NCBI GenBank assembly: GCA_951406725.2
Contig: OX597822.1
Span: forward strand, 4,216,001-4,280,000
DNA length: 64,000 nt
Reading direction: 5' to 3'
From: Octopus vulgaris
Lineage: Eukaryota
A program made the position numbers and the translations under genes. Positions within the stretch are counted from its first letter, which is position 1. Every line of letters starts with the position of its first letter. Positions 5,936 to 53,259 of this stretch are shown here, in pieces. The notes under the pieces were generated by a model that was not told the DNA's origin, searched no databases, and saw nothing but the letters and a program-made list of their open reading frames with translations.

Positions 5936-6000
5936 AAAGCGGCGATCTGACAGAATCGTTAGCAGACCAGGCAAAATGCTCAGCGTTATTTCCTTCATCT
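5936..6000 (+). mobile_element. 5' head of a B-family SINE split by a LINE insertion
   Basis: AAAGCGGCGATCTGACAGAATCGTTAGCAGACCAGGCAAAATGCTCAGCGTTATTTC aligns to the intact head AAGGCGGCGAGCTGGCAGAAACGTTAGCACGCCGGGCGAAATGCTTAGCAGTATTTC (10218). Confidence 0.8.
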
Positions 6001-6391
6001 CTTTTGTTTCTTACGCGTCACACTTGTGTTCGTGGTGAAAATTACTGTTTCTTGGTGTTAATATTGCTAATAAATGTTGTTTCTAATAATTGCTGTTTCT
6101 TGTTAAATTGTTGAATTTCTTAACCGTTGGAGTTTTCATTTGAAAATACTAAGTGCCTGTAGAAAGCATTCCTCCGTTGAAGGGAAGAATGTCGTCTTGT
6201 GAGGAGCCCACCGTTGGAACAGAAATGTTTGTTTCTCCTGTTGAAAGGAAAAATTACATGTTTTCTGGCGAGGAGCCAACTACGAACAAAGAAATAATGG
6301 ATTCCCCCGTTGCAAAAGAATGACAAAATGTATGAGTTATTTGGAGATGTCTGAAAGTTCATCAGAACTTTTACTAGAATAATTCCCGAGT

Positions 6392-7678
6392 TTGCCAAAA
6401 AACAAAGGTATTGTGTCCAAAAGAGTAACTGATGCACCTAGCATCCAAACTGAACAACCGAAAAAAGAAAAAAAATGTTTTGCGTTGGCAGCTGGGGGTG
6501 GAACCCGGCTGCTTTCGACGAATAAGTGTGATTTCATGAAATACAGTGAAATGATGCAAATAAATGATAACGTGGTTAAAATTCAACCAGCAGAGAAATT
6601 ACTATTAGAAGAGAAACGGAAAACGATAATTTTCAAAACTTACTGTTTTCAAAAAAGAAAAATTGAGAAAATTACAGAAGAGAAGATAGAGAAGTGCCTG
6701 AAGCCAATCTGGAGCGACGTGGTTTATCTGACAAGAGGCAAGAAATTCGGAACGGTGGAAGTAAGGTTTACCAACAAAGAAATTGCATAGAAACATTCAG
6801 TAGAATCGCTGATCCCCACCTATATGAGGATGAGAACATCCAGGATTAAAATCACAAGGGTCCCACCGGAAGTGGATCCTATGTGGTTGTTGGCGGCAGT
6901 CCTAATCAAACAGGAAGAGAAAATGACTCTCCTCCAGGTTGCCGCTACCGAAAACGCTAACTGGACTGGTCAAACAGTTAGTCTCCTCATTCAGACTGAC
7001 CCTAAAATAATTGAAGCAATTCCCGAGACAATTGAGATAGGGGAAGAGACCCTCATGGTATTTGTTGAGGGCCGAATGTTTTTTATGTGGTCAATTAGGC
7101 CACATTCGAAGTAACTGCAAGGAAAATGAGGAAGAGGAGAAAGAGGAGAAAAATGAAAAGGAGGAAGAAGAAAAAGAAGAAAAAGATGAGAAGAAAACAA
7201 AAAACAAAAGGAAAATACAATCAACAACTCAACCGAGAGCGGCGTCTACTACTGAACAACGACCAAAAAAGACTGCCAGAAGAGAAAAAGAGGAAAAAGG
7301 CAAAATAGCCGTATACACTAAAGATACTGAGAGACATTCACTTGATTAAACTGCAAAAAAATAAATAGCCCTTCGGAGAAATTTACCAATTATGACGTGT
7401 ATGAAGTCTCAAATAAGACTCATAGAATTTTACAGAACAAATACCGTAAGACAGTATCATCAATGAGATTGGACTTTAATAATTCTATATTTCATGGATT
7501 ACCAGCCCCGATCCCGCGAGAAAAGGAAAAGGTGGAGACTCCCCCTCCACCTGATAATTCTGTGTCGATAATGAGATGGGATTTTAACAATCTATTTCCC
7601 AAGACCGGCCACCTCCGACCCTGTATCAAGAAAAGGTGGAGGGATCCTCTTCACCGCACAGTCCTGATTAACAGGTAA
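6392..7678 (+). pseudogene. Disrupted LINE ORF1 (gag-like, zinc knuckle)
   Basis: Fragments 6392-6790, 6824-7114, 7062-7349, 7397-7678; CFLCGQLGHIRSNC (C-X2-C-X4-H-X4-C) at 7077-7118. Confidence 0.8.
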
Positions 7679-7681
7679 ATC

Positions 7682-8920
7682 ATGTCTATTCACATTGGTT
7701 GTGTAAATGTTCGTGGCCTGATATGGAGTTGGAAGCAAGGGCGCTTCCTAAATGACATCAGGTCGAGAAATTTGGATATAATTGTTGCAACAGAAACCCG
7801 GGTGAAGGGGCCAAGAGATCTGATCCCCCTCCTGAACGGCTACGAGAAATACGTTTCTCCGAGTCGGGCGGGAGGTGGGGTGGGGTGTTGGTCCTACTAA
7901 AAAGAAACCGGGTAGCCGAGAAAAAGTTGTTTTTTTTCTGACCCAGAATGCAGGTTGGTCGTTCTTGACCTGACATTCAGTTGTGGCAAGATAATCAAGC
8001 TAGTTGCTATTTATGCACCCAAAATTATGGGCCCGCAAAGTGAATATTTTCGTGACCTGGGCAAGTTCCTAGCCACGTCGCATTCGCTAGTATTGCTAGG
8101 AGACTTTAATACAATATGTGAAGCACATACAGATTGTAACCCAGGCTTACGGGATCTGCTAAGTCAATTTCAGCTTGCCGATCCATATAGGTTGGAACAC
8201 CCGAACACTCCACAGTGGACGTGATCAAATAGTGACAGGTCTTCCAGAATATATCTAGATAGGATTTTAATTAAAGAAACAGATAAGTCCATAGCCGAGT
8301 GTCCACAGTTTTTTCTGGTCTGCTACACTGACCACAAGATGGTTACTTGTAACCTGACGGTAGATAAGTTGCATAGTCAGGGATCTGGCTACTGGAAACT
8401 CAATACGTCCCTTTTGGCGACTGAGGAGTACAGAAAACGGATCAAGATGTTAATATAGAGGGCATTAACAGGTACCATCATTAATAACAAATGGTGGTAC
8501 ACCCTAAAAAAAGCCATCAAATATGAGTCTATTAGGTTTAGCATAAGTTTAGCTAAGAAGGGGCGTAGAATAGGAGATGGTCTAGTTAAGGAACTAGAAG
8601 AAGCCTGGAGGACTGGTAATGCGAGGGTGAAAACTGGAGTTAAACCAGCATCTTGAAGCCTAACACATGGGAAGTATTGCCAATGCTAAGTTACGTGCAA
8701 TGGGAAGTGAATGAATCAAGGCTGCTGGATGGGCCCGGGTGGTGGAAGCTCGGCAAAGAAATAGTTCCACTATTCAGTCTTTGACGAATCAAAATGGTGT
8801 CTTGGTAAACGAACCCGAGAACATATGTGAGGCCTTTCGGGAGCTATTCGGGGGTGACGCTGCCTTGGTGGTGGGAAAGCCCTCGAGGACTTTCATGCCG
8901 GGTTGCCGTGTCTCTCGGCA
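7682..8920 (+). pseudogene. Disrupted LINE ORF2 N-terminus (AP-like endonuclease), truncated before RT
   Basis: Motifs GCVNVRGL, IIVATET, LVAIYAP, LVLLGDFN, YLDRIL, TDHKMV and GSGYWKLNTSLL across frameshifts and stops. Confidence 0.9.
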
Positions 8921-8997
8921 AGTCACATTATATGTAAAATCATAACGCTTTACTGATCTCATGAGTTGTTCTGTGCATTGTGGGCAATAAAGAAATT

Positions 8998-9163
8998 GGT
9001 ATTTCGTCCGTCTTTATATTCTGAGTTCAAATTCCGCCAAGATCGACTTTGCCTTTCATCCTTTCGAGGTCCATACAATAAGTACCAACTGAAAGCTGAG
9101 ATCGATGTAATCAGCTTATCTCCCCTGAAATTAATGGTTATGTACCAAAATTTGAAATCAATA
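8998..9163 (+). mobile_element. 3' remainder of the split B1 SINE
   Basis: Starts GGTATTTCGTCCGTCTTTATATTCTGAGTTCAAATTCCGCC, exactly where the 5936-6000 head stops. Confidence 0.8.
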
Positions 9164-10217
9164 TGAGAAAAACCAAAATGATGCCGCAGGAAACAAGGGC
9201 AGCAAAATGCTGAAAGCGATAAAGCACTGAACTAAATGCCGCCTGATGTTCTTTTTTTCTCTAGGTGCTGAGTTCGAATCCCGCTGATGTTGGCATAAAA
9301 TAGTTATTATATATGTATTGTGAAATTATTCAGTCGAGTAGAGTACTTTTCTACAAATAGCTCTGCACTGTTGGTAAAACCAATAGTTTACTGAAATAAA
9401 CTGAAGCCGTTTGATATTAACGAAGTAGTGGAGAACAATGCTTCTACACAGAACAAATGTCTAAGACATTTGTTCTGTGCCAATAAACAGTCGGTTTTAC
9501 GCCAGCGAAATACCGACAGTCACTTGGTGCCAATGAAATGTCAACAATCTACTTGAGAAGAAGAAAAAGCCACCAGTTTCATGGCGGCAATAAAACGTCC
9601 ACAATTATTCGATGCCAACAATCGAGAGATATTCGATCCATTCCAACGAAATACCGCTCGACGGCAGGCGTTCAGTCCTGCGTACACACAACCAGTTAGA
9701 ATGGCAACGCACAACCAGTTATCTCGGTGCTATTTGTTCACTCCTAAACAAACATTACAGAAGCCACGGTATGTCTGGAGTTTAGTTTACTGTGGATTTA
9801 TGAAAATAGACAATACATAGCTATTACACATGACCAACAAATAAGGACAGAATGTCTGTGTACTAGCGGTTTCCGACATTAGATAATCTCTTATAACGAC
9901 CATGAACTAAAGTACGGACCACGTCCTGCCACTCGGCCCCCTAAAAAGACCAGTTGAATCTCCCTGAAATTGAATTCTACCATTTAAATATTAGGGAAAA
10001 GATGGGGACAATTGATAATGTAGGACCAGTTTCATTTTCTTTCGTTCTTTTTTCTTCTTTCTCTTCCTTTTTTCTGGATGTGGAGAAAGGAATAACACCA
10101 GCGTCCTTTGGCAGGTCTGCAGCATAGTTAAAGCAGTCATAGCTGCAGCAATGATTTATAAATCGGTTTAATTAGAGCTGACCTGTGACTAAGTAACAAC
10201 AATAATTGAAGCAAGGT

Positions 10218-10620
10218 AAGGCGGCGAGCTGGCAGAAACGTTAGCACGCCGGGCGAAATGCTTAGCAGTATTTCGTCTGCCGCTACGTTCTGAGTTCAAA
10301 TTCCGCCGAGGTCGACTTTGCCTTTCATCCTTTCAGGGTCAATAAATAAAGTACCAGTAATGCACTGGGGTCGATATAATCGACTTAATCCGTTTGTCTG
10401 TCCTTGTTTGTCCCCTCTATGTTTAGCCACTTGTGGGTATTAAAGAAATAGGTATTTCGTCTGCCCCTACGTTCTGAGTTCAAATTCCGCCAAGGTCGAC
10501 TTTGCCTTTCATCCTTTCGGGGTCGATAAACTAAGTACCAGTTGCATACTGGGGTCGATCTAATCAACTGGCCCCCTCTCTCAAAATTTCAGGCCTTGTG
10601 CCTGGAGTAGAAAAGAATAA
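10218..10620 (+). mobile_element. SINE dimer B2-B1
   Basis: Head+body+B2 tail, junction AAAGAAATA|GGTATTTCGTC at 10450/10451, second body with GGCCTTGTGCC tail. Confidence 0.85.
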
Positions 10621-11144
10621 TTAAAGAAAGGTATATATATTTCAAAACCGAATGATATTAATTTGTGTGTGTGTGTGTGTGTGTGTGAATAACACACATA
10701 CACACACACATATGCTCATACCCACACTACTACACTCACACACATGCGTCCAGACACATATACACGCATACCCAATCAATGCCTCATTCACTCCCCCTCT
10801 TTCTCTCTCTTTCTCACAGATACATACACTCACATATTCACACAAACACGCACACATACGCATACACCTATTCGTACACTCACAAACACACAGGGGAGCA
10901 GACATTCACTCACACACATTCACACATACACGTACGACAGAACAACAAACACGGATCCTCTATAGAATGAACCACACAACTTACCAAGACCCCCCCCTAT
11001 TAGCGTACATGGATCTTAACCACATGGATTCGGGTTCAGTCCCACTGCGTAGCACCTTGGCCAAGTGTAGTCCATTCTAGCCTCTTGGCGACTAAACCCT
11101 CTGAGCAAATTTCTTCAACGCCGTTCTATACAAATATATTCTTT

Positions 11145-11325: not shown

Positions 11326-11327
11326 CC

Positions 11328-11648
11328 AAATTCCGCCGAGGTCGACTTTGCCTTTCATCCTTTAGCAGTCGATAAATTAAGTACCAGTTACGCACTGGGG
11401 TTGATATAATCGACTTAATCCGTGTGTCTGTCCTTGTTTGTCCCCTCTATGTTTAGCTCCTTGTGGGTAGTAAAGAAATAGGTATTTCGTCTGCCGCTAC
11501 GTTCTGCACTCAAATTCCACCGATGTCGACTTTGCCTTTCATCCTTTCGGAGTCGATTAAATAAGTACCAGTTGCGTACTGGAGTCGATATAACCGACTG
11601 GCCCCTTCACCAAACATTTCGGGCTTTGTGCCTAGAGTAGAAAACAAT
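11328..11648 (+). mobile_element. 5'-truncated SINE dimer B2-B1
   Basis: Junction AAAGAAATA|GGTATTTCGTC at 11480/11481. Confidence 0.85.
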
Positions 11649-23152: not shown

Positions 23153-24007
23153 TATATAGATAGAATAGTTAGTCGGCTGTTATGTAGATGTGTATGTGTA
23201 TATGTGTATGTATACATATATGAGGGCCAAGTCTCTCTACCAGGTCTCATCAACGTCAACTGCAACAGGTCGATGATGAATATTGCCTAGAGAATATGTG
23301 TCTAGAGTAGAAAACAATCGTTAGCACGCCGGGCGAAATGCTTAGCGGTATTTCGTCTGTCTTTACGTTCTGAGTTCAAATTCCGCCGAGGTTGACTTTG
23401 CCTTTCATCCTTTCGGATGAATAGAAAGGGACACAGAAAAAAACAAGGAGAAAAACAAGGAGAGAAAAAAAACGTGTGTAGTGGCTAACGATCTATCATG
23501 GCAACTGATTCGGACAGAAGAGTCACACACGAGAAGGAAAGTAGGGGACATATATATATATATATATATATATATTGTTAATGAGATGAGAGAGACAGAA
23601 GATGGAAGATACGAGAATGTTGATGATATTATATGTGTATGTGTGTATGTGTGTGTGTGTTGTGTGTGTGTGTGTGTGTGTGTGTGCCTCGGTCTGTGTC
23701 TGTGTGCGTATGTGTGTGAGAGGGCGAGAGAGAGAGGAATGTTACGTGTAAACCAAGAATTTGTGGGACAGTTTTGTACTTGTTGTGCTGAGATTTGCCC
23801 ATCAATAAGCGATCAATATTACTGACTTGAGAAGATGGAATTTTAAAGCTCTCCGCAAAATACATGAAAACTGTTTAATGAAAGCTAAATAGTACCAGTG
23901 GCTTGTAGAAACATATTTGCGGCAACAGCTATGATGGTTTTTTGCTAGTTTATTTTCCTCACTTGTTTCTGAAATACATTGGTGAGTATGAAGTATGCTA
24001 ATGTATA

Positions 24008-24408: not shown

Positions 24409-24637
24409 AATGAATATATTGTAGACATACAACCACAAGAATTTATGCAAAAATAACCATGATTTTATAACTACCTCAGGTGCCAGGCCGAATGCTTAGG
24501 GTCTTAGACTTAACGATAATTTTTAGGTCAGGAGTTCAATTCCTCTCTGTCCATGTGTCACACTAACGATGTTCCACTGGTCAATGGGTGAGAGGCCCGA
24601 GACGGTGTCTATGTCAGCTTAGACGGTGTCTATGTCA

Positions 24638-39821: not shown

Positions 39822-39894
39822 GGGGAATTAGCTCAAGTGGTAGAGCGCTCGCTTAGCATGTGAGAGGTACCGGGATCGATACCCGGATTCTCCA
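39822..39894 (+). tRNA. tRNA-Ala (anticodon AGC)
   Basis: 73-nt cloverleaf GGGGAAT...ATTCTCCA, G3:U70 alanine identity pair, AGC at 39855-39857, followed by a T7 Pol III terminator. Confidence 0.96.
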
Positions 39895-41129: not shown

Positions 41130-41202
41130 TGGAGAATCCGGGTATCGATCCCGGTACCTCTCACATGCTAAGCGAGCGCTCTACCACTTGAGCTAATTCC
41201 CC
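41130..41202 (-). tRNA. tRNA-Ala (anticodon AGC), identical inverted copy
   Basis: Exact reverse complement of 39822-39894; T6 terminator on the minus strand. Confidence 0.96.
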
Positions 41203-42336
41203 TGCTAGCTGCTAAGCGAAACAATAAATATATATTTAATACTTAGGCATGATAGATATGAACACTGCTTGGCCAGAGGTATTTAGCAATAAGTTCTTAT
41301 TTCTGCTACCTTCAAGGAATGGAAAATAGCACCTGTCACATCCGTGCCTTCCCTAAAGGCTTCGGCGAAATGAGTGAAATGTATTTATAATCGATGAACC
41401 TAACCTGGATCATAGAACAGGTTTTCTAGTGAGCGATTACTAGCAGCACTTATTTTCGCTGTTTCGTCCCGGTCCATCCGACCCTAAGTGAGCTGATCTA
41501 CAATCAAAAGCATTTCAGCTGTGATCATATTGTCCACCAACCATTCTTCTCAACTAAAGCCTACACTTGATCCTGTCTTTAAGGCTATGGTGTGATTTAC
41601 AAAATACTTAACAGCTGTTATTAACCAGTAAGCGACTGCAGTCAGTTTGTTGTATTTTGTTGTGTCTTCATGCATTCTGAGTCAAAATTCCTACAAGAGT
41701 TTGATCCAGTGTTATCTTTCATTTCTCCAGAATCGACCAAAACTAGAAATTGTGGAGTGGATCCATTGACTATATCTGCTCTGAAAAAAGTACGACTTTG
41801 TTAAACGTCAAAATTATGCAAAACTTAGCAAGGATTTCATTTTTTTAAATATTATGAAGTCACAAAAATCAACTGATGAGACTTCGTAGTAAAACAGGTC
41901 ATAAGCAGGCATAACTGTTGTAGTTCAGGAATTCCCTTCACAACCGCAAATCCTTAGTCGTTGTTCTAAAATGAATATGATTTGGTAACATGTACCACGT
42001 TTTTCATTAACTCTTTTAGACGCAAGCAGACATAGACAAGACATTCTCTCGGTCACAGTGAGACAGAAACGTTGTGACAGCTGGTGATGGAGAGATAGAG
42101 ATGGAGACAGACACAGAGGCAGAGACAGAGGTGGCGAGAGCTGCACCAACACTCGGCTGTTTACACATTTGCAACTAAATAGACCGGAATAATGTGAAAT
42201 GAGGAGAATAGAATGCACCGCCCAAATCTATGAGTATATTTGATCTTGAAACAAAACTTTAACAACAAGATCGTGAGCAAACATTTGTGTGTGTATGTGT
42301 GTGCGTGCGCATATAGATAAATAGATAGATAGATAA

Positions 42337-44520
<2,184 letters not shown>

Positions 44521-49916: not shown

Positions 49917-50852
49917 AACAAATTGACAGAGACAAAGAAAAACAGCAAAACAGAGACAGAACAGCAAGAGAGAGAGACAGAAAGACTAACAGATAGACAC
50001 CTCGTCAGACTAAAATAAAAGGGTAGAATTCATACTGATTTCAAATTCTGGTGCAAGGCCAGCAATTTCAAGGGTATTGGGTAAATCGATTGCATCGACC
50101 CCAGTGCTCAACTGGTACTTATTTTATCTACCCCGAAAGGACGGCCTCGACGGAATGTTAACTAAGTGCGTAAAGACGGACGAAATGCCACTACGCATTT
50201 TGTCCGGTTCACTAACCATTCTACCAGCTCACCACATTAATTTAAATATTTCATAAATTATTACTTTGCAAGAGGAAAACTCCAAAATTCTTGCCGGCGT
50301 GGCTGTGTGGTAAGAAGCTTGCTTCCCGATCACAATAAGATTATTAAAAATATATAAGGTCCTTCCCGAGTTATATAGACTCATAGATCCGGTTTCCCAG
50401 TTTCCATGATGTATAAAACAGACGAAATACGGCTACGCATTTCGCCCGGTGTCCTAACGTTTCTGCCAGCTCGCCGCCTAACCTCCACTACTGATAATAG
50501 AGGAAGGGGTAAAAAGAAGTGGTCTTATGCTGTAATTGAAATGTTATCGCAATTTATTAGAGTATTTACAAATCGTTGAAGAAATACATCGATAGAAATT
50601 CAATTTTCTTTATTAGAAAACTTTGCTCGATTGCTCTTCTGTTTAGTGTCTTGCTATCTTATTTTCATTTACGTGTGCGTACGTTTGTTAATTGATAGTT
50701 AATTATACTATATACTCATTTCGAGCTGTATTAGTTCAAGGCATATAGATTAATAGCATCACCAACTTACTAAAGATTAAGTGGTAATTTGAATGTGATT
50801 GTCAATTCAAGTGAAAACATTCTTTTTAGCAGAAATATATTCTATGAGCGGA

Positions 50853-51066
50853 AGGCGGCGAGCTGGCAGAAACGTTAGCACGCCGGGCGAAATGCGTATC
50901 CGTATTTCGTCTGCCGATATGTTCTGGGTTCAAATTCCGCCGAGGTCGACTTTGCCTTTCATCCTTTCGGGGTCGATAAATTAAGTACCAGTTACGCACG
51001 GGGTCGATGTAATCGACTTAATTCGTTTGTCTGTCCTTGTTTGTCCCCTCTGTTTAGCCCTTGTGG
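50853..51066 (+). mobile_element. SINE B2 (in duplicated segment)
   Basis: Near-identical to 53028-53245. Confidence 0.85.
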
Positions 51067-51101
51067 ATACACACACACATATATATATATATGCGTGTGT
51101 A

Positions 51102-51132
<31 letters not shown>

Positions 51133-51824
51133 TTGTGTCTGTGTTTCCCCCTCCCCCCATCACCGCCTGGCAACTGGTACTAGTGTTTTTATGGTCATGT
51201 AACTTAGTGGTTCGGTTAAAGAGCATGATAGAATAAGTGTCAAGCTTTAAAAAATAAGTCGTGAGGTCGATTTGTTCGACTAAAAGCTTGTGCTCCAGCA
51301 TGGCCGCAGTCACATGACTAAAACAAACAAAAGAATAATAGAATGATTATAACATAAATTATAAATAAACTCTGTTGAGCGTGTGTTATGTGTGTTTGGA
51401 AGCATGTGCGATTTGGTTTCTCTTTTTTTTCTCTCATAACATTTCATACAGATCTACTAATTATTTTATTATGCAGATCTCAACTAAGTCTGTGACTTAA
51501 TTTCAATTCTCGCTTAGAAGTTTATCATTTCACTTCTTCTCCTTTATTATTAGTACACCACTATCACATCACGTCGTTCTTGTGATTTTCTTAACGATTG
51601 GGTTCAGATGAAGGAGTAGTGCGCTTGTCTACGCCCACCAATGCCAACGATGTAAGCAATAAACATGATTGACTCACCTTCACACTGCATGCGATGATAA
51701 TATGCTAGAGACAGCCCTAAGCCCAAAACTCAACTATAACTTTCATTCCATTCAAAACTGCGATGTTGATACCAGTTGTAATTGAAACTAGATACACTGA
51801 CAATAAGATTATTAAAAATATATA

Positions 51825-52072
51825 AAGGTCCTTCCCGACTTATATAGACTCATAGATCCGGTTTCCCAGTTTCCATGATGTATAAAACCCCCACCTAGAC
51901 GGGACGCCGGTCCTTCACGGGATTACTCATTTTTGTCAGCCGAGTGGACTGGAGCAGCGTGAAATGAAGTGTTTTGCTCAAAAACACAACGCGTCGCCCG
52001 GTCCAGGAATCGAAGCTGCAATCTTACAATCATGAGTCCAACACCCAAACCACAAAGCCATGCACCTGCACT
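51825..52072 (-). mobile_element. SINE, head D + tail V
   Basis: Central block matches 1325-1370; tail matches 1835-1915. Confidence 0.75.
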
Positions 52073-52075
52073 ACT

Positions 52076-52635
52076 GATAATCCTTTCTACTATTGGCACA
52101 GGGCCTGAAATTTTGGAGGGAGAGGACCAGTCGATTACATCGACCCCAGTGCGTAACTAGTACTTATTTCATCAACCTCGAACGGAAGGATGGCAAATTC
52201 GAACTCAGGGCGTAAAGGCGGGCGAAATACCTATTTCTTTACTACCCACAAGGGGCTAAACACAGAGGGGACAAACAAGGACAGAAAAACGGATTAAGTC
52301 GATTATATCGATTACCAGTGCGTAACTGGTACTTATTTAATCGACCCCGAAAGGATGAAAGGCAAAGTCGACCTCGGCGGAATTTGAACTCAGAACATAG
52401 CGGCAGACGAAATACCTATTTCAATTTCTTTACTACCCACAAGGGGCTAGACACAGAGAGGACAAACAAGGACAGGCAAATGGATTAAGTCGATTACATC
52501 GACCCCCGTGCGTAACTGGTACTTAATTTATCGACCCCGAAAGGATGAAAGGCAAAGTCGACCTCGGCGGAATTTGAACTCAGAACGTAGCGGCAGACGA
52601 AATACGGCTACGCATTTCGCCCGGTGTGCTAACGT
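52076..52635 (-). mobile_element. SINE trimer B2-B2-B1
   Basis: Two GAAATA|GGTATTTCG junctions at 52417/52416 and 52232/52231. Confidence 0.85.
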
Positions 52636-53027
52636 TTCTGCCAGCTCGCCGCCTAACCTCCACTACTGATAATAGAGGAAGGGGTAAAAAGAAGTGGTCT
52701 TGTGCTGTAATTGAAATTTTATCTCAATTTATTAGAGTATTTACAAATCGTTAAAGAAATACATCGATAGGAATTCAATTTTCTTTATTAGAAAACTTTG
52801 CTCGATTGCTCTTCTATTTAGTTTCTTGCTATCTTATTTTCATTTACGTGTGTGTACGTTTGTTAATTGATAGTTAATTATACTATATACCCATTTCGAG
52901 CTGTATTAGTTCAAGGCATATAGATTAATAGCATCACCAACTTACTAAAGATTAAGTGGTAATTTGAATGTGATTGTCAATTCAAGTGCAAACATTCTTT
53001 TTAGCAGAAATATATCCGATGTGTGGA

Positions 53028-53259
53028 AGGCGGCGAGCTGGCAGAAACGTTAGCAAACCGGGCGAAACGCGTAGCCGTATTTCGTCTGCCGTTACGTTCT
53101 GGGTTCAAATTCAGCCGAGGTCGACTTTGCCTTTCATCCTTTCGGGGTCGATAAATTAAGTACCAGTTACGCACGGGGGTCGATGTAATCGACTCAATCC
53201 GTTTGTCTGTCCTTGTTTGTCCCCTCTGTGTTTAGCCCCTTGTGGGAAGTAAAGAAATA
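53028..53259 (+). mobile_element. Full-length SINE B2 with imperfect 16-17-bp TSD
   Basis: TATATCCGATGTGTGGA (53011-53027) versus TATATCCGGGTGTGGA (53260-53275). Confidence 0.9.

Follow-up and report, generated by a model that had tools for sequence, protein, structure and literature searches.

How do several copies of one SINE come to be joined, one behind another, at exactly the same nucleotide? This question is raised by a 64,000-nucleotide stretch of Octopus vulgaris DNA (contig OX597822.1), the whole of which is referred to below as the window. A sequence-only reading of it had noticed SINE-in-SINE arrays and proposed that one subfamily inserts at a site also used by a LINE, so that the arrays can keep growing.

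The SINE family of the window

The window consists of microsatellite-rich animal DNA, about 5.9% of which is made up of one tRNA-type SINE family. Its members contain (i) a front of ~50 nt bearing an A-box-like motif, (ii) a body of ~118 nt, which begins (G)GTATTTCG and bears a B-box-like motif, and (iii) one of three tails: T1 (B1 in the sequence-only reading), T2 (B2; these labels are unrelated to rodent B1/B2) or T3, which had been overlooked and is carried by the SINE hosting the LINE at 6003–8997. The A-box-like TGGCAGAAACG and B-box-like GAGTTCAAATTCC of the SINE head are closed by GGCGG/CCGCC. The first 98 nt of the SINE gave a folding z-score of −3.28, and the tails folded no better than shuffled sequences (z 0.17–0.55).

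Neither ARAGORN nor Rfam called the SINE head a tRNA. Rfam analysis of the window returned two tRNA-Ala genes only, and thus no U1/U2 snRNA-derived head of the kind that characterizes SINEU elements. The two tRNA-Ala(AGC) genes (39822–39894, plus strand; 41130–41202, minus strand) are identical and inverted, with upstream flanks in common.

As expected of tRNA-derived SINEs, the elements are short, non-coding, dispersed and present in high copy number with target site duplications (TSDs; TSD-like matches in four of the five elements examined), and they have a 3′ tail in common with a partner LINE (T2 vs both LINE 3′ ends of the window). Two T2 monomers are referred to below:

53027–53259 (+): T2 (B2) monomer away from the target site; reference for contig mapping
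24637–24869 (+): T2 (B2) monomer with a 13-nt TSD beginning GGT

The target sequence occurs twice upstream of the second monomer (24601–24636), so that its TSD is 13 or 18 nt long, depending on the copy chosen. Monomer 4644 had no detectable TSD (1038 of 3000 controls scored equally high). As a lead, the family may well be that of the octopus elements OR1 and OR2, two tRNA-type SINEs with a common front and different tails.

Nested joints at a single nucleotide

All four junctions of B2 with a B-family SINE that the sequence-only reading had listed were confirmed and exactly placed (0 expected by chance): 10450/10451 and 11480/11481 on the plus strand, 52232/52231 and 52417/52416 on the minus strand. 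One LINE end falls on the same nucleotide as these four, since position 8997 abuts GGTATTTCG at 8998. The pattern AAGAAATWGGTATTTCG matches four places in the window (8990, 10443, 11473 and 52223; mean 0.00 in 100 shuffles), and the fifth joint, 52417/52416, carries an extra TGAAATA and lies outside this pattern. Two of the junctions belong to a trimer, described below, and the others to two dimers:

10201–10633 (+): dimer, head-body-T2/body-T1, junction 10450/10451; one TSD (10201–10218/10616–10633)
11327–11645 (+): dimer, body-T2/body-T1, 5′-incomplete, junction 11480/11481

The TSD of the dimer at 10218 is identical at 16/18 positions (5 of 3000 controls equally high), and no host head was found upstream. 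A run of four T is absent from both dimers; the dimer at 10218, in the manner of an Alu-like fixed dimer that moves as a unit, combines an outer TSD with the lack of an internal terminator.

The terminal unit has the T1 tail and the internal units the T2 tail in all three arrays, although the “always” of the original claim refers to n = 3; hosts with T2 or T3 tails exist, yet 3/3 arrays end in T1. The internal units are not whole SINEs: each comprises the 3′ part from GGTATTTCG on, without the 5′ ~50 nt and the A box, because the target site sits between the A and B boxes. This site is located at the loop of a predicted 13-pair hairpin. No two-headed nested insertion was found in the window.

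The window contains eight intact T2 ends, followed by GGTATTTCG (4), GGTGTCTATG (1) or TAT (3); a ninth T2 copy has lost its end. The proposal that B2 inserts at the site of the LINE (8998) therefore holds insofar as the site is common to both, but 4/8 B2 ends lie elsewhere and insertion is not strictly site-specific. The 4/8 ends flanked by GGTATTTCG, a count inflated by re-mobilized composites, may be set against the target-flank criterion of >20% used in PMC4494074. At 23290–23416, a short piece of T1 tail runs directly into a family head, near base 20 of the latter; here a T1 end has made a SINE-in-SINE junction at a different position.

LINEs and the probable origin of the T2 tail

The LINE ending at 8997 has been inserted in place and shares its nucleotide position with the SINE junctions. 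It and a second LINE are organized as follows:

5937–6002 (+): host SINE head (head match) with the 5′ copy of the target duplication (5985–6002), upstream of the LINE
6003–8997 (+): L1-group LINE (likely Tx1-type), broken and internally deleted; ORF1 CCHC knuckle, APE endonuclease, RT lost; 3′ end TGTGGGCAATAAAGAAATT
8998–9165 (+): host SINE 3′ part from GGTATTTCG, with T3 tail
42377–43755 (−): second L1-group LINE, 3′ piece, inside a (CTAT)n microsatellite

The duplicated segments flanking the first LINE (5985–6002 vs 8998–9015) match at 13/18 positions, a score reached by 5 of 20000 random 18-mers. This LINE contains a zf-CCHC domain (E 6.3e-5) and an Exo_endo_phos match below the cut-off (E 0.0012), and aligns at 28–37% with full-length EN-RT proteins (E about 1e-40 to 1e-44), one of which, P0006, is closer to human L1 ORF2p (E 1e-72) than to R2 (6e-29). 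The second LINE has a zf-RVT domain (E 4.8e-8) and 61% identity to an Argonauta hians protein. An ORF1 knuckle, APE endonuclease and C-terminal zinc finger, together with the RT of full-length relatives, agree with the L1 group; the RT itself has been deleted from both window copies. The window LINEs may belong to the Tx1 clade; no named Tx1 reference was present among the best 120 of 549 hits. As regards target preference, one LINE copy was seen in the SINE site and one in (CTAT)n, i.e. a single copy each. Repeats of (CTAT)n occur on both sides of the second LINE (window positions 42313–44146), as in the microsatellite-targeting Kibi/Koshi.

The T2 tail is similar to the 3′ ends of both LINEs: 76–81% over 42–47 nt in the case of the 42.4-kb LINE, and an alignment score of 40 with the last ~28 nt of the 8.9-kb LINE (maximum 36 in 2000 shuffles). 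The existence of two kinds of T2 flank would be explained by a pair of sister LINEs that differ in their targets, each being represented here by one copy. Searches of public contigs for related sequences were negative: the T2-tail pattern was absent (0 stretches) from contigs of metagenomes, genomes and viruses, LINE alignment in metagenomes gave 164 pattern matches and 0 confirmed loci, and the endonuclease piece of the 6–9-kb LINE gave 0/46 candidates.

Structure of the trimer

The trimer, previously placed at 52635–52076, extends from 52655 to 52082, and its order on the minus strand is head, body-T2, body-T2, body-T1:

52656–52673 (−): outer TSD, 5′ copy; 17/18 identical to 52081–52064 (4 of 3000 random window positions equally high)
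52607–52655 (−): SINE head with A-box-like motif, young GCGTAGCC subfamily
52417–52606 (−): unit 1, body (B-box-like motif, central domain) and LINE-like T2 tail ending GAAATTGAAATA; 2/118 from T2-unit majority
52232–52416 (−): unit 2, from GGTATTTCG, body and T2 tail; 7/118 from majority
52082–52231 (−): unit 3, from GGTATTTCG, old-type body with ~16-nt deletion, T1 tail; 15/102 from majority
52064–52081 (−): outer TSD, 3′ copy, overlapping the start of a SINE that belongs to another family

The whole trimer is enclosed by one outer TSD and no host head is found upstream. Since this is also true of the dimer at 10218, it is most likely that the trimer and the intact dimer each moved as a whole unit. 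The earlier suggestion that arrays keep growing is consequently upheld only in part: each unit holds the site, but neither array looks like a product of growth in place. Unit 2 contains a T5 run at a base that is mostly G in other T2 tails.

Several further observations concern the surroundings of the trimer. The position of its TSD over the first bases of another family's SINE head hints that the T1 partner favors the 5′ edge of SINE heads. A local duplicate with a period of ~2.2 kb (50419–51069 vs 52594–53245; 95.7% over 652 nt) contains the trimer's head; it is deleted from GTATTTCGTCTG to a sequence matching 51800–51888, and the B2 copy there is without its tail end. The 50.4–51.1-kb duplicate was considered as an empty allele of the trimer and rejected, as the head is kept and the deletion begins after GTATTTCGTCTG. 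Monomer 53027 and unit 1 are inverted, head to head, 370 nt apart, with 2.5% divergence, and have in common a rare T>G variant (53175 and 52507, respectively; 2–5% of depth in four runs). Their likeness reflects either the same young lineage or local conversion.

Recurrence of the joints in public contigs

Contigs of four of 24 listed runs (X1, X3, X9 and X12; four organism codes; 167,663–412,306 contig records per run), of which X1 is perhaps the source of the window itself, were mapped to monomer 53027–53259. This revealed that the T2|body joint recurs in all four runs. Joint 53259→53077, which leads from the T2 end back to GTATTTCG, mostly with a G between, was found in 17, 28, 10 and 1 contigs of X1, X3, X9 and X12, respectively; no other joint starts at the T2 end among the 15 of 776 rows listed. 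Past the T2 end, the majority reading of the loose ends was GGTATTTCGTCTG in X1 (907 records, agreement 0.41) and nearly the same in X3 (1359 records; first letter A); it was weaker in X9 (686), and no such loose ends were among the rows listed for X12. The depth of T2 relative to the core was 0.21 in X12 vs 0.57–0.73 in the other runs. Joint 53194→53027 (a non-T2 tail, then another family head) was as common as the T2 joint (25, 39, 24 and 23 contigs).

Joint 53090→53027, with two letters between, was represented by two rows in X1 (depth 935.7 and 555), the only run in which it appeared among the rows listed. Its layout, in which 15 nt of target separate the host head from the new head, is the 5′ junction expected of an insertion in place with a 15–17-nt duplication, similar in length to that of the LINE; the contigs give no linkage of this 5′ joint to the 3′ joint.

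Two variants distinguish X12 from the other runs. The G of the trimer head (53071) accounts for about 66–73% of depth in X1, X3 and X9 and about 5% in X12. The youngest subfamily has CGTATTTCG in place of GGTATTTCG as its target (52606; monomers 4591, 50901 and 53076), and G at this target base makes up 73% of depth in X12 vs 19–26% in the other three runs.

Age and kinship of the array units

Divergence from the T2-body majority increases along the trimer from 5′ to 3′ (2/118, 7/118 and 15/102; units 1 and 2 vs unit 3, Fisher p 0.0008). Unit 3 lies outside the young clade, differs at 12/102 positions from both the young and old majorities, and, among the diagnostic columns, has the old-type state at three of the first four and the young-type state at the last four. 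The head subfamily GCGTAGCC is nearly absent in X12, from which it follows that the head is younger than unit 3. Independent insertion had been said to predict unrelated hosts and a B2 younger than its host, and the trimer's last unit is indeed an older, different host. We consider it probable, with some reserve, that a T2 subfamily inserted site-specifically into its own relatives and that the composite was then copied to the trimer locus as a single transcript.

Tandem Repeats Finder reported the trimer locus as a repeat (period 190, 2 copies, 92%), and SINE-derived satellites exist in squamates (PMC10702118), so local tandem duplication of a ~185-nt piece, i.e. a nascent satellite, has to be considered. 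This explanation is very improbable and largely refuted by the distances between units. In such a satellite, adjacent units would be homogeneous or nearest relatives, which the sequence-only reading had also named as the sign of local duplication; instead, unit 1 is nearer to monomers elsewhere (2.5–4.2%; 2.5–2.6% for monomers 53027/50852) than to unit 2 (5.9%). Unit 3 differs by 16.7–18.6% from units 1 and 2 (units 2 and 3: 18.6%), and the same breakpoint occurs at unlinked loci and in four runs.

The variants common to the arrays are of interest with respect to another explanation, in which one ancestral dimer, born once at the LINE site (perhaps together with B2 itself, by template switch), served as the master for amplification, its junction being inherited rather than re-made, and trimers or odd terminal units arose via unequal crossing-over, template switching or gene conversion. 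The outer TSDs, the lack of host heads and the T1 ends of 3/3 arrays are all consistent with such a history. Moreover, a minority C (+17; 13–17% of depth in four runs) is present in 5/6 array units vs 0/5 B2 monomers (Fisher p 0.015), and the dimers have variants in common in both halves (53185A/53228A-type in unit 1, TTGCRTAC in unit 2). In a tree that is a sketch only (0/14 branches starred), trimer unit 2 is placed beside the terminal unit of dimer 11327 (91/90 support, unstarred); it also has GATTAAATAAG in common with a dimer terminal unit, and resembles a dimer-u2/dimer-u1 mosaic at two sites. The diagnostic mutations that the sequence-only reading had expected of a single dimeric master are thus partly present, but trimer unit 3 differs. 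It is old-type from 10 nt past the junction, which would confine a switch to the first ~9 of ~118 shared bases, and it is 20.6% and 23.5% from the dimer terminal units, so that the composites do not all consist of one pair of halves, as those of an Alu-like master would. The head subfamily of unit 1 also differs from that of the dimer at 10218, the extra repeat is peculiar to junction 52417, and head-15 nt-head joints are present in contigs. We therefore regard a single inherited dimer as unlikely, though deserving of serious attention. Local duplication and a single fixed master both fail to account for the trimer, given the distances of its units.

A further possibility is growth in place, whereby B2 cDNA is primed at the host site, its 5′ end is joined by homology, the host head is replaced or reused, and the outer TSD is that of the old host. 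The age order of the units agrees with it, a homologous 5′ join would leave a seamless structure, and target-like RNA ends raise priming accuracy in SART1Bm and R1Bm (PMC7265360). However, the trimer head is young-type along its whole length while unit 3 is old, and a TSD identical at 17/18 positions has a probability of 0.35 at 12% pairwise divergence vs 0.04 at 25%, a difference of about 9-fold. In addition, unit 2 departs from unit 3 in its first 16 nt, as does unit 1 from unit 2 at base +1, whereas these bases would have been carried over had the join been made through the duplicated target of the host. Growth in place thus seems distinctly improbable.

The favored explanation, site-specific insertion followed by copying of the composite, also has to accommodate some contrary observations. 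That the window contains only one LINE-in-SINE insertion and no two-headed nested copy, and that the three arrays all end in T1, counts against it. The minority C is not predicted by independent insertion of random B2 copies, and would fit only if array RNAs were favored as templates or C-copies as targets. Since 5/6 array units carry this base, some of the junctions are probably due to amplified dimer masters; the variants common to the arrays point to composite masters, and perhaps also to recombination. Polymerase III would be halted by the T5 run of unit 2, unless this run is a post-insertion change.

A proposed mechanism

Starting from the observed junctions, LINE insertion and duplication, tail similarity, outer TSDs, age order and recurrence in contigs, the likely enzyme specificity, read-through transcripts and order of events may be outlined as follows. 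(i) An L1-group LINE inserts at GC|GGTATTTCG, in the stretch that separates the A box from the B box, creating a ~16–18-nt duplication (seen once in the window). (ii) The B2 tail, similar as it is to the LINE 3′ end, would derive from this LINE lineage, so that B2 would be copied by those LINEs, either to the SINE site or, via a microsatellite-targeting sister LINE, to TAT-rich sites. (iii) RNA polymerase III would start at the inserted B2 head and, meeting no T4 stop, read into the 3′ half of the host, yielding RNA without the host head (head-body-T2-body-T1). (iv) Composites were reinserted as units, as the outer TSDs show, presumably via the terminal tail, and some of them (dimers) likely became masters. 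(v) With the site kept in each unit, a second round would put a younger B2 in front, and hence produce the 5′-young to 3′-old order.

More tentatively, these steps might form a self-feeding cycle, in which a SINE that took the 3′ end of the LINE parasitizing it came to parasitize its own family and ratchets into ever longer mobile arrays. Taken together with two further elements, namely that the target sequence in read-through array RNA primes the next precise insertion, and that the GGTATTTCG to CGTATTTCG change of the youngest subfamily looks like an escape, this scheme is a doubtful but conceivable one. If it is true, SINEs would have a way of turning into tandem repeats by retrotransposition, and a race between hosts and parasites, involving three selfish elements, could be dated.

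Implications and comparison with known systems

The nesting rule changes the annotation and dating of octopus repeats, because a composite consensus would mix units of different ages. If the site-specific mechanism is true, a SINE is to be counted among the sequences targeted by site-specific LINE endonucleases, SINE multimers may arise by a mechanism distinct from both tail insertion and unequal crossing-over, and the ordered insertion series provides a relative clock for subfamilies, applicable to any octopus assembly.

SINEs constitute 11.6% of the O. vulgaris assembly, where most of the recently active families lack a classification and L1-Tx1 families have been recently active (PMC13282606); the retrieved parts of that paper's text and supplement gave 0 matches for “dimer” or “nested”. 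OR1/OR2 are named as CORE-SINEs in PMC4824008, PMC4758252 and PMC5804259. A search of freely accessible papers yielded no report of octopus SINE dimers, of a SINE-targeting Tx1 or of a SINE targeting its own family.

Tandem SINEs are known from Alu, mouse B1/B2 and jerboa Dip, the last with multimers of up to 8 units, and some amplify as composites (PMC8466645, PMC10702118). As described there, these multimers consist of whole units arranged head to tail, whereas the internal units of the octopus arrays are headless and all joined at one internal nucleotide. The squamate sSat repeats, described as tandem partial SINE units of 150–190 nt with a longer terminal unit and ascribed to duplication and homogenization (PMC10702118), differ from the octopus units, which are of mixed ages and bounded by a LINE-like 3′ end. 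Among sequence-specific L1-group LINEs, Tx1L inserts into Tx1D, Keno into U2 and Kibi/Koshi into microsatellites, all of them multicopy safe targets; in contrast to the octopod LINEs, no SINE target is named for them in the consulted sections of PMC4494074.

The closest case, as far as the same sections describe it, is that of crocodilian SINEU-3 and Tx1-Mar LINEs, which have a preferred site in Mariner and an expected TSD of 16 nt; the strength of target preference varies among families (13% to 90%), successive insertions give rise to tandem copies, and sister Tx1 lineages target microsatellites (PMC4494074). As in the octopus arrays, one position within a different repeat is preferred both by a SINE and by the LINE that is its likely partner. 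However, the crocodilian target is an unrelated transposon, whereas that of the octopus SINE is its own family, within the promoter region; SINEU-3 tandem copies are whole units sandwiching a TSD, whereas the octopus composites were re-mobilized; and, compared with SINEU-3, the octopus SINE has a tRNA-type head and a tail in common with the LINE.
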